Source of the DNA: Elusimicrobiota bacterium
GTDB taxonomy: Bacteria > Elusimicrobiota > Elusimicrobia > UBA1565 > UBA9628
Reading direction: 5' to 3'
NCBI GenBank assembly: GCA_033875325.1
Contig: JANRKA010000084.1
Coordinates: forward strand, 4,716 to 68,715
Length of the DNA stretch: 64,000 bases
The notes under the pieces are model-generated. The model was given only the letters and a program-made list of their open reading frames with translations, searched no databases and had not been told where the DNA came from. Below are positions 40,811 through 45,246 of this stretch, piece after piece. How positions within the stretch are numbered: the stretch's first letter is position 1; the number at the start of each line of letters is the position of its first letter. Made by a program: the position numbers and the translations under genes.

Positions 40811-42736
40811 ATGACCCATCAATCCATCCCTAAATGCTACGATGCGCCCGCCATGACCGAACGCAACACCGCCACGCTGTTGCGCCGCCTGGCCGTCGTC
40901 GGCGCGGACCTGATGCTGGTGCTCGCCGCCTACCTCGCGGCCTTCGTCCTGCGCTTCGACGGCCTTCCTGAAGCCAACTTCGCGCTGGCCTTGGTCAAGA
41001 CCTGGCCCGTGGTCCTCGTCACCCATCTCCTGACCTCGTATTACTTCGGGGTCAACCGCGGCCTGCGCCACTACGCGAGCTTCGGCGACATCGTCAACAT
41101 CGGCAAGGCGGTGGGCGCCGCCGGCCTCATCTACGGCGCCGTCATCCTCGCCATGACCCAGGGCAAGTTCCCGCGCTCGGTCCTGCTCATGACGCCCATC
41201 CTCTCCATGTTCGTCATCTGCGCGCTCCACGCGGCGGTCCGCTACGCCAAGGAGCTGCTCCCGGCCAACGGCCGCTCCCGCATGAAGGTCCGCACCGTGA
41301 TCATCGTGGGCGCGGGCGACCTCGGCGAGCTCGTCTACCGCCAGATGCGCACGCACGACGACGTCGAGTACCGCATCGTCTCCTTCATCGACGAGGACGC
41401 CTCCAAGTGGGGCATGCGCCTGCACGGCGTGCCCGTGGCCGGCGGCATGGCCATGCTCGCCGACCTGCTCGGTCGCCGCCCGGTGGACGAGATCGTCGTG
41501 GCCGTGTCCCAGCGCCGCGGCGACGTGGTCGCCCGCGTGGCCGAGGCCCTGCGCGACCTCAAGCAGCGCCCCGAGATCAAGATCGTGCCCGGGCTCGACG
41601 AGATGATGCGCTCGCAGGCCTCCTCGGCCAACCCGCGCAAGGTCCAGCCCGCCGACCTGCTCAACCGCAAGGAAGTGCGCCTGGACGCCGCGCGCATCGC
41701 CCGCTCCATCGAGGGCAAGGTCGTCCTCATCTCCGGCGCCGGCGGCACCATCGGCGGCGAGCTCTCGCGCCAGGTCGCCGACTACAAGCCGCGCACCATC
41801 CTCCTCCTCGAGAACCACGCCACCGCGCTGTTCTACCGCGAGGCCGAGGTGCGCGAGCGCGCCCCGGGCGTCGAGGTGGTGGGCGTGTTGGGCGACGTGC
41901 GCGACCAGGCCCTGCTCGACCGCGTCTTCAAGATGTACCGGCCGCAGGCGGTGTTCCACGCCGCGGCGCACAAACACGTCCTCCAGCTCGAGAACAACCC
42001 GCACGAGGGCGTCAACAACAACGTCATCGGCACCTACCGCCTGGCGACGATGGCCGACAAATACGGGGCCGAGAGCTTCCTGCTCATCTCCACCGACAAG
42101 GCCGTGCGCCCCTCCTGCGTGATGGGCGCGGCCAAACGCGCCGCCGAGATGGTGGTCACCGACTTCGCGCGCCGCTCCAAGACCCGCTTCGTGGCCGTGC
42201 GTTTCGGCAACGTCCTGGGCTCCTCGGGCTCGGTGCTCAAGATCTTCCAGGAGCAGATCGAGCTGGGCCGCCCCATCACCATCACCCACCCCGACGTGAC
42301 GCGTTTCTTCATGACCGTGGAGGAGGCCGTCGGCCTCGTGCTCCAGTCCAGCGCCATGGCCAAGGGCGGCGAGGTCTTCGTCCTCAACATGGGCAAGCCG
42401 GTGCGCATCATGGACATGGCGCGCAACCTCATCCTGCTCTCGGGCCTGGAGCCGGGCAAAGACGTCGAGATCCGCATCACCGGCCTCAAGACCGGCGAGA
42501 AGCTCAACGAGGAACTCGTCGAGGACCCCGCCGGCGAGGAGCCCTCCGAGCACCCCGACATCACCGTCTTGCGCGCCGAGAACAAGCCCATCGAGGCGCT
42601 CGAAGACCGGCTCCTGGAGTTGGAGCTCATGAGCCGCGGCAACGACAAGCTCGCGATGATCCGCAAGCTCGCGGCCTTCGTGCCGACCTTCACCGCGGAC
42701 CCCGTCCACGGGGACGCCGCCGCCGAGACCGCCTGA
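40811..42736 (+). CDS. Membrane-anchored nucleotide-sugar 4,6-dehydratase (CapD/WbpM/PglF family)
   Basis: N-terminal TM segments, two Rossmann motifs (IIVGAGDLGE; LISGAGGTIGGEL) and the block STDKAVRPSCVMGAAKR. I chose ATG 40811 because TATCCT lies 6 nt upstream. ATG 40853 (MTERN) is an alternative start. Confidence 0.85.
   Translation: MTHQSIPKCYDAPAMTERNTATLLRRLAVVGADLMLVLAAYLAAFVLRFDGLPEANFALALVKTWPVVLVTHLLTSYYFGVNRGLRHYASFGDIVNIGKAVGAAGLIYGAVILAMTQGKFPRSVLLMTPILSMFVICALHAAVRYAKELLPANGRSRMKVRTVIIVGAGDLGELVYRQMRTHDDVEYRIVSFIDEDASKWGMRLHGVPVAGGMAMLADLLGRRPVDEIVVAVSQRRGDVVARVAEALRDLKQRPEIKIVPGLDEMMRSQASSANPRKVQPADLLNRKEVRLDAARIARSIEGKVVLISGAGGTIGGELSRQVADYKPRTILLLENHATALFYREAEVRERAPGVEVVGVLGDVRDQALLDRVFKMYRPQAVFHAAAHKHVLQLENNPHEGVNNNVIGTYRLATMADKYGAESFLLISTDKAVRPSCVMGAAKRAAEMVVTDFARRSKTRFVAVRFGNVLGSSGSVLKIFQEQIELGRPITITHPDVTRFFMTVEEAVGLVLQSSAMAKGGEVFVLNMGKPVRIMDMARNLILLSGLEPGKDVEIRITGLKTGEKLNEELVEDPAGEEPSEHPDITVLRAENKPIEALEDRLLELELMSRGNDKLAMIRKLAAFVPTFTADPVHGDAAAETA

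Positions 42737-45246: not shown

Follow-up and report, generated by a model that had tools for sequence, protein, structure and literature searches.

A stand-alone nonribosomal peptide synthetase (NRPS) module is encoded within the exopolysaccharide (EPS) locus of an Elusimicrobiota bacterium, on a 64,000-nucleotide stretch of contig that we refer to as the window, and to which all positions refer unless another locus is named. The module comprises an adenylation (A) domain, a peptidyl carrier (PCP) domain and a type I thioesterase (TE). The two main points of note are a link, at the level of the family, between such modules and glycan loci, and a conserved, non-canonical start that is coupled by overlap to the gene upstream, which encodes a CapD-type sugar dehydratase. 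We interpret the product as a soluble component of the EPS pathway, started at a CTG codon in coupling with CapD, that would transfer an aminoacyl group to an EPS precursor in the cytoplasm; we regard this interpretation as about as probable as its negation.

Translation of positions 42733-45243 yields 837 residues in which a Pfam scan recognises AMP-binding (E 1.4e-72), AMP-binding_C, PP-binding (E 7e-15) and Thioesterase (E 1.8e-19), in that order; the same scan finds no Condensation (C) domain. The A domain scores 400.1 bits against the amino-acid adenylation model TIGR01733 of NCBIfam (cut-off 317.4) and, judged by that model and by PF00501 plus PF13193, has core motifs A1-A10: A3, LIYTSGSTGRPKGV, begins at 43135, the A4 Asp is encoded at 43279-81 and the A10 Lys at 44170-72. 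Scores against the exosortase-A-associated acyl-CoA ligase model TIGR03098 (211 bits, cut-off 592) and two DltA models (222.9 and 216.8 bits, cut-offs 476 and 560) fall below threshold. The PCP motif reads FFDLGGHSL, with the phosphopantetheine Ser534 encoded by TCC at 44332-44334, and the TE matches PF00975 with 71.3 bits (cut-off 26.4). A first-pass annotation of this DNA had described an orphan, intact A-PCP-TE module without a condensation domain; the domain matches and the presence of all catalytic motifs bear this out, and A3, A4, the carrier Ser, the TE Cys and the C-terminal GDH had each been placed correctly. The window has a G+C content of about 73%, and a plot of G+C by codon position shows the coding frame of the CapD-like gene giving way to that of the module near position 42750. 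Maximum hydropathy over 19 residues is 1.18; the protein has no transmembrane or other hydrophobic segment and is therefore expected in the cytoplasm.

Orthologues are present in two other loci. One (P0002, 69% identity) belongs to a metagenome-assembled genome (MAG) labelled 'uncultured Elusimicrobia' (L001/L006; L001 10001-12388), and the other (P0003, 64% identity) to a JGI metagenome (L002 5447-7780). A scan of genome and metagenome contigs returned matches above 60% identity only in the Elusimicrobia MAG (L001), the rest being generic NRPS genes at 31-47%. The reading frame is intact in all three orthologues (837, 841 and 833 codons) and whole-gene dN/dS is about 0.4-0.47; by this comparison the gene is under purifying selection in three lineages. 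In L001 a Pirin gene is split into two calls (13709-14604) and a glycosyltransferase (GT) homologue is fragmented (1318-2500), which suggests indel errors in that assembly; arguments about frame that rest on this locus alone need care.

The beginning of the gene is unusual. Between a point 400 nt upstream of CTG 42733 and the ATG at 42814 there is no in-frame ATG, GTG, TTG, ATT, ATC or ATA, and the 400 nt that precede the conserved N-terminus of the A domain hold no canonical start (ATG, GTG or TTG) in the window, L001 or L002. The claim that the gene lacks a canonical start thus holds for all three orthologues. As a consequence, the public calls of P0002 and P0003 are cut short at the N-terminus, by 46 and 56 codons, and begin at internal GTGs. 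The nearest canonical in-frame start upstream, GTG 41407, was rejected: it lies about 1.3 kb away, inside CapD in another frame. The ATG at 42814 is an unlikely start, judging from its replacement in both orthologues (Table 1) and from the conserved coding region that precedes it; it had already been considered too far downstream. Over codons 10-45, third positions account for 16 of 25, 15 of 28 and 17 of 32 differences in the comparisons between orthologues, and since changes fall mostly at third positions, the stretch upstream of the canonical starts is probably translated. Relatives with an ordinary ATG start and an N-terminal extension match it, from codon 10 onwards (A-T-L-H-G-L-F-E...), at the point where their A domain begins.

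Upstream of the conserved TLHGLFE motif, the window, L001 and L002 have a single start-like codon in common, CTG 42733. In all three, CapD ends in ...GCC TGA, and the frame of the A domain there reads CTG A... The first-pass annotation had taken this CTG for the only start-like codon, which stands insofar as no other is shared by the three orthologues but overlooks a second CTG at 42763. Its observation that comparable overlaps occur elsewhere in the locus is confirmed by a count: 10 other junctions are 4-nt overlaps of the form ATGA, GTGA or TTGA. Overlapping stop and start pairs of this kind couple translation by termination and reinitiation (PMC6728339), and initiation at CUG in E. coli reaches 1-2% of that at AUG (10.1101/063800). 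From the sequence we consider it most likely that translation begins at CTG 42733, at a low level and coupled to CapD: having finished CapD at the overlapping TGA, a ribosome would start again at the CTG, tying a low output to that of CapD. Initiation may instead occur at CTG 42763 or at a conserved ACG at codon 10. Two further explanations of the junction were rejected. The frame of the A domain is -1 relative to that of CapD, but a fusion of CapD and the module by programmed -1 frameshifting is unsupported, as none of the orthologues has an X_XXY_YYZ slippery site within the final 60 nt of its CapD gene; and a sequencing or assembly error is contradicted by the same arrangement in three independent assemblies.

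The module is part of a Wzx/Wzy-type EPS locus, whose membership was assigned by Pfam scans. Envelope and transport functions are represented by a beta-barrel porin, Wza, Wzc, a flippase and an ABC transporter (exporter); further genes encode two Wzy_C proteins, DUF4838, GT4, GT2, an epimerase, a Bac_transf phosphoglycosyl transferase, three ATP-grasp domains, a CapD/PglF-type dehydratase, the A-PCP-TE module and a low-molecular-weight protein tyrosine phosphatase (LMW-PTP). CapD, 93% (L001) and 85% (L002) identical to that of the window, is always directly upstream of the module, and the order CapD, A-PCP-TE, LMW-PTP in the two orthologous loci substantiates the earlier assignment of the module to the EPS locus. 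The conserved block is larger still, comprising ATP-grasp, GT2, GT4, CapD, A-PCP-TE, Wzb and a membrane protein of 230 residues. That membrane protein, which forms an operon with the Wzb phosphatase and adjoins the module, has no Pfam or NCBIfam match. The NCBIfam models likewise give no specific family for the TE, a 211-residue protein, DUF4838 or a FemAB-like gene (Acetyltransf_6; window 48748-49884, minus strand) located 3.5 kb from the module.

Ten contexts of stand-alone A-PCP-TE relatives at 40-69% identity were compared, of which seven, including the window, L001 and L002, are glycan loci. Relatives at only 39-48% identity are likewise found in such loci, which extends the association between module and EPS that had been noted from the window alone. 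L004 contains Wzy_C, GT2, DegT, Bac_transf and CapD, with DegT beside Bac_transf and CapD. In L167 there are a flippase, Wzy_C, two GT4, a FemAB-like protein (Acetyltransf_6, 5344-6357), a polysaccharide deacetylase, GT2, Bac_transf and CapD, and in L005 GT2, a flippase, a nucleotidyl transferase, Glyphos_transf, a deacetylase and a FemAB-like protein (3139-4944); L169 and L170 each have GT2 and an epimerase.

A wider set, consisting of 160 generic matches from scans of genome and metagenome contigs, was also examined for context. In six Acidobacteriota loci and one Chitinophagaceae locus the homologue has either a WbaP-like Bac_transf or Wzc/Wza for a neighbour. Pfam matches pooled over the genes around it at these seven loci comprise Bac_transf (6), GT4 (3), polysaccharide deacetylase (3) and Wzz (2), together with additional NRPS components, P450s and a CmlA-type hydroxylase. 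Hybrid loci, in which NRPS genes are directly beside polysaccharide genes, were seen in Acidobacteriota (L008, L009, L021, L033, L089 and L090): the NRPS side has C, A, PCP, TE, P450 and a CmlA-type beta-hydroxylase, the glycan side a WbaP-like phosphoglycosyl transferase, GT4, polysaccharide deacetylases and Wzz. A gap of 30-130 nt separates the end of the Bac_transf gene from the A-PCP-TE gene that follows it in L021.

Most NRPS TEs use a Ser nucleophile in a GxSxG elbow; the elbow here is G-Y-C-I-G. In phmmer alignments to PDB sequences, G-G-Y-C-I-G-G corresponds to GYSLGG of EntF, GWSFGG of NocB and GWSLGS of 7crn, so that Cys660 (TGC, 44710-12) occupies the place of their Ser, as had been supposed. 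The other members of the triad are Asp687 (44791-93) and His817 (45181-83, within PGDH). An AlphaFold2 model of the TE (mean pLDDT 89.5) puts the Cys at a strand-turn-helix elbow behind strand 85-90, Asp687 (Cys +27) directly behind the next core strand, 111-117, which we assign as beta6, and His817 behind the last strand. Foldseek searches with the model return thioesterase domains of NRPS, polyketide synthases (PKS) or fatty acid synthases as all of the best matches. The predicted triad is Cys/Asp/His with the acid at the common 'position I', because the model sets Asp687 directly after the beta6 strand.

The position of the acid bears on the product. ObiF and SulM, whose TEs form a beta-lactone and a beta-lactam, respectively, share with the module a Cys nucleophile in an NRPS TE. 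In both of them the Asp comes after beta7, and a Gln-Cys-Asn motif is reported for SulM (PMC11298585). In the module the model puts the catalytic Asp behind beta6 and not at 'position II', the loop after beta7; the motif is Tyr-Cys-Ile, and the TE does not terminate a C-A-PCP-TE module, there being no C domain. The strained-ring product that had been put forward is consequently disfavoured, because the catalytic Asp appears to follow beta6, unlike that of ObiF and SulM. According to the model, the TE resembles not this ring-forming type but the TEs of BulbE and AB3403, which combine a Cys nucleophile with an Asp after beta6 and a His after beta8, as do Cys660, Asp687 and His817. AB3403 is among both the fold and the sequence matches of the TE.

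How common is the Cys? With the TE domain as query, a HMMER scan of 1.84 billion cluster representatives gave 22,077 matches at E<=1e-3 and 3,138 at E<=1e-10, and the nucleophile column was read in the best 150, which are representatives of 50%-identity clusters aligned to the query. Cys occupies the column in 143 of the 150, mostly within GG[YF]CxGG; of the same 150, only 90 have the Asp at position I. Representatives with the Cys elbow range from TE-only, PCP-TE and A-PCP-TE to C-A-PCP-TE and multimodular proteins, and the clade has a common N-terminal motif, FF(L/V)HGDxxGGGxY. Among the 19 closest stand-alone A-PCP-TE relatives, 10 have Cys, with Cys and Ser interchanging, while the full triad is kept in the fused TE of all A-PCP-TE relatives. 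On these alignments the Cys is a trait of the clade, not peculiar to the window gene, and the suggestion that it marks an exceptional enzyme is not sustained. Word-indexed protein searches with the TE alone recovered few matches, mainly PCP-TE didomain proteins. Such stand-alone didomain proteins, of about 380 residues (P0163, P0279, P0281 and about 30 others), have the same Cys elbow and HGD..GGG motif; their genes are isolated, without conserved neighbours.

What might such a module do in an EPS locus? The best-fitting reading, which rests on context and chemistry, is that the TE acts as an acyltransferase. The A domain would adenylate an alpha-amino acid, perhaps a basic one such as Lys or Orn, which would be loaded onto the phosphopantetheine arm at Ser534 and moved from there to Cys660 of the TE. 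A sugar precursor, and not water, would then supply the nucleophile that resolves the thioester acyl-enzyme, making the TE an aminoacyl-transferase that acts from the cytoplasmic side, with a nucleotide-sugar or an undecaprenyl-linked repeat unit as its acceptor. The proposed substrate derives from the specificity code, D-S-E-A-V-S-E-V-I-K, read by hand through motif mapping and checked on an alignment to LgrA: the pocket has the Asp equivalent to position 235, and its two Glu (239 and 322) point to a cationic side chain, for instance that of Lys or Orn. No published specificity-code table was found in the literature searched, so the substrate call stays a weak one.

Of the possible acceptors we favour a sugar amine, for three reasons: the recurrent neighbours CapD, DegT, Bac_transf and polysaccharide deacetylases all generate sugar amines, the locus has no PglD-like acetyltransferase (Pfam scans over 17-52 kb of the window reveal neither this nor any hexapeptide acetyltransferase), and a thioester intermediate is prone to aminolysis. 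A candidate is the C4 amine of an N-acetylhexosamine produced by the adjacent CapD with a DegT aminotransferase, and the DegT enzyme encoded at 56064 may be the partner of CapD that creates it. The module would then fill the role of an N-acetyltransferase such as PglD, and the repeat unit would come to contain an amino sugar that is N-aminoacylated; the product may instead be an O-ester. The three ATP-grasp domains of the locus are, speculatively, candidate ligases that add or extend amino-acid or short-peptide substituents on the glycan. Taken to its full extent, the proposal is of a widespread and undescribed polysaccharide decoration, in which a fused A-PCP-(Cys)TE replaces the N-acetyltransferase and couples a basic amino acid to the nitrogen of an amino sugar in the repeat unit. 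The resulting EPS would be cationic or peptide-primed and might be extended by the three ATP-grasp ligases, and dosage would be set by a conserved CTG that works only through termination and reinitiation at the CapD stop. This extended version is tentative, and we would sooner expect it to fail in some part than to hold.

Several observations weigh against cytoplasmic aminoacyl transfer from a CTG-started module. The contexts of P0009, P0020 and P0025 are not clear glycan loci: two relatives with non-glycan contexts adjoin PPK2, GDPD and PMT_2, and one context is uninformative. Around the PCP-TE didomain members of the wider Cys-TE clade there is no glycan context at all. Several close relatives have Ser in place of Cys, so the Cys is not essential to the family and is dispensable for its function. 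No gene for a phosphopantetheinyl transferase was found among the scanned genes of the window, and DegT is 11 kb from the module, outside the operon. The likeness of the pocket code to published Lys and Orn codes is a tentative one. As to the start, GAGAC, the Shine-Dalgarno-like stretch that precedes the CTG, is weaker than its counterparts at most other junctions, and CTGA by itself is weak evidence, because in a genome so rich in G+C at third positions about half of all TGA stops should have a C in front of them.

The interchange of Cys and Ser also suggests that nucleophile chemistry is not critical, and hence lends something to a different division of labour, in which the module only feeds aminoacyl-S-PCP to a separate transferase, much as DltA and DltC feed DltB, and the TE is an editing or hydrolytic safety valve. 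Partners of the ATP-grasp enzymes, the 230-residue membrane protein and the FemAB-like enzyme are candidates for that transferase; the membrane protein, conserved and without family, adjoins the module, and FemAB/Acetyltransf_6 genes co-occur with A-PCP-TE genes in the window, L005 and L167. The FemAB-like gene of the window is, however, not conserved in L001 or L002, the membrane protein matches no recognisable transferase family, and Pfam scans of the locus detect no homologue of MBOAT, DltB, DltD or an AlmG/LpxL-type transferase. With the TE fused and its triad conserved throughout the relatives, we consider a separate transferase unlikely. Rather more doubtful is a free small molecule, not covalently tied to polysaccharide and released by intramolecular attack as a lactam, a ring of the beta-lactone or beta-lactam type, or a dimer. 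It would leave unexplained the tight operon, the coupling by overlap to CapD and the repeated glycan context of distant relatives, and it is at odds with an Asp at beta6, not at the beta7 of ObiF and SulM, and with the lack of a Gln-Cys-Asn motif, a C domain and tailoring enzymes, even though the characterised Cys-TEs (ObiF, SulM and BulbE) all cyclise and a basic side chain could attack the thioester.

That the module is an iterative homopolymer synthetase, whose TE joins activated units over and over to make an isopeptide-linked cationic oligomer, free or grafted to EPS, strikes us as very unlikely. It has no transmembrane or export domain, and the known poly-amino-acid synthetases use C-like domains. 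The single-module A-PCP-TE architecture would nonetheless fit, as would the hint of a diamino acid from the two Glu of the pocket code and the preference of thioester acyl-enzymes for aminolysis; the polymalic-acid synthetase is of A-T-TE architecture. A review describes how that enzyme polymerises L-malate (PMC9210645). Least credible is a silent gene or pseudogene that has lost its start codon. The missing canonical start and the weak Shine-Dalgarno-like sequence are what one would expect of it, but a frame of 833-841 codons intact in three lineages at 64-69% identity, with every catalytic motif kept, dN/dS of 0.41-0.47 (below 0.5) and an N-terminal stretch that varies mainly at third positions, argues against decay.

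Table 1. Coordinates of the A-PCP-TE gene, its domains, candidate start codons and neighbouring features in the window
Feature	Position	Strand	Details
A-PCP-TE open reading frame	42733..45246	+	837 codons, CTG 42733 to stop 45244-45246; Pfam and NCBIfam matches
Adenylation domain	42757..44202	+	residues about 9-490
Peptidyl carrier domain	44254..44436	+	residues 508-568; PF00550, 55.4 bits (cut-off 20.8)
Type I thioesterase domain	44500..45243	+	PF00975, nucleophile alignment, AlphaFold2 model, Foldseek
CTG, proposed initiation codon	42733..42735	+	overlaps CapD stop TGA 42734-42736 as CTGA
Second CTG	42763..42765	+	start of public record P0001 (MHGLFED...); CTC in L002, so not conserved
First canonical in-frame ATG	42814..42816	+	inside conserved N-terminal region of A domain; GTC in L001, CTG in L002
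Wzx/Wzy-type EPS locus	19080..45707	.	Pfam scans
Bac_transf phosphoglycosyl transferase	33671-34231		Pfam scan
Three ATP-grasp domains	35388-38602		one single-domain and one double-domain gene; conserved in L001 and L002
CapD/PglF/WbpM-type membrane sugar 4,6-dehydratase	40805..42736	+	PF02719 (E 1.3e-99), CoA_binding_3
LMW-PTP, Wzb-like	45243..45707	-	PF01451; convergent with A-PCP-TE
Multi-pass membrane protein, 230 residues	45704..46396	-	hydrophobic segments; 56-57% identity in L001 and L002
DegT-type sugar aminotransferase	56064..57215	-	PF01041 (E 4e-100)

Elsewhere in the EPS locus, two adjacent Wzy_C genes (O-antigen ligase- or polymerase-like) are joined by ATGA overlaps and followed by DUF4838 (22999-27748); two polymerase-like genes in one locus are unusual. 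At the edge of the window (1-2447) a second AMP-binding enzyme, cut by that edge, overlaps the gene for a reductase of the 3beta-HSD/NAD-epimerase family; the two may be an acyl-AMP ligase and reductase pair, unrelated to the EPS locus. A protein of 795 residues (9246-11633, minus strand) has a C-terminal spermine/spermidine synthase domain as its only match, its long N-terminal part being without a family.

Amino-acid substituents on capsules, O-antigens and EPS alter charge, antigenicity, phage recognition and resistance to cationic peptides, and for most of them we know of no enzyme that attaches them. A-PCP-TE modules recur in Wzx/Wzy loci of Elusimicrobia-like bacteria, Acidobacteriota and other uncultured bacteria. 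Should they prove to aminoacylate glycans, they would represent a third solution beside the Dlt/Alm-type systems and the ATP-grasp ligases, and would give a non-cyclising role to a large and mostly uncharacterised clade of Cys-TEs. The start codon has implications of its own: gene callers shortened two of the three orthologues, so genes with a conserved CTG/CTGA start are systematically mis-annotated, and the conserved CTGA makes a naturally occurring test of whether translational coupling can drive initiation at near-cognate codons. In the literature searched we found no precedent for an A-PCP-TE or A-T-TE module in a polysaccharide locus, an absence that is not proof that none exists.

The closest likenesses of the TE are to the BulbE-TE of the bulbiferamide NRPS and to the TE of AB3403, a C-A-PCP-TE protein of Acinetobacter baumannii (PDB 4ZXH), both of them type I TEs with a Cys and an Asp after beta6. 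The uncharacterised AB3403 is the only enzyme with this combination named in the paper on the SulM structure (PMC11298585), and BulbE is thus a second case. Its triad is Cys961/Asp988/His1097 (PMC11536411), with the same spacing of +27 from Cys to Asp as between Cys660 and Asp687. A nitrogen nucleophile resolves the BulbE thioester, in an intramolecular cyclisation. Replacement of its Cys by Ser abolishes amide formation and raises hydrolysis, and the authors contend that, compared with an oxoester, a thioester acyl-enzyme is far more activated towards aminolysis (PMC11536411). The BulbE and AB3403 TEs are terminal domains of peptide assembly lines that contain C domains, whereas the module has no C domain, would handle one amino acid and is part of an EPS operon.

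Three other systems resemble the proposed role in part. NRPS-like A-T-TE enzymes (the fungal and bacterial quinone or furanone synthetases and the polymalic acid synthetase) have the same three domains, and their TE forms a bond without a C domain; they act on alpha-keto or hydroxy acids and lack the Asp that binds the alpha-amine, whereas the module has the A4 Asp, passes the amino-acid adenylation model and is found in a Wzx/Wzy context. The type I TE of Pks13 transfers mycolate to trehalose and thus releases its substrate onto a sugar and not onto water. Pks13 is among the sequence and fold matches of the module TE, at low similarity (E about 5e-3 by sequence), and differs in its Ser nucleophile, lipid substrate and PKS context. 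The Dlt system (DltA, DltC, DltB and DltD) and AlmEFG carry out carrier-protein-dependent aminoacylation of envelope polymers, and are akin to the role proposed here in that an adenylating enzyme loads a carrier for the decoration of a surface glycopolymer or glycolipid. They do so, however, with separate proteins and a membrane acyltransferase of the MBOAT or LpxL type, whereas in the module A, PCP and TE are fused in a single protein.

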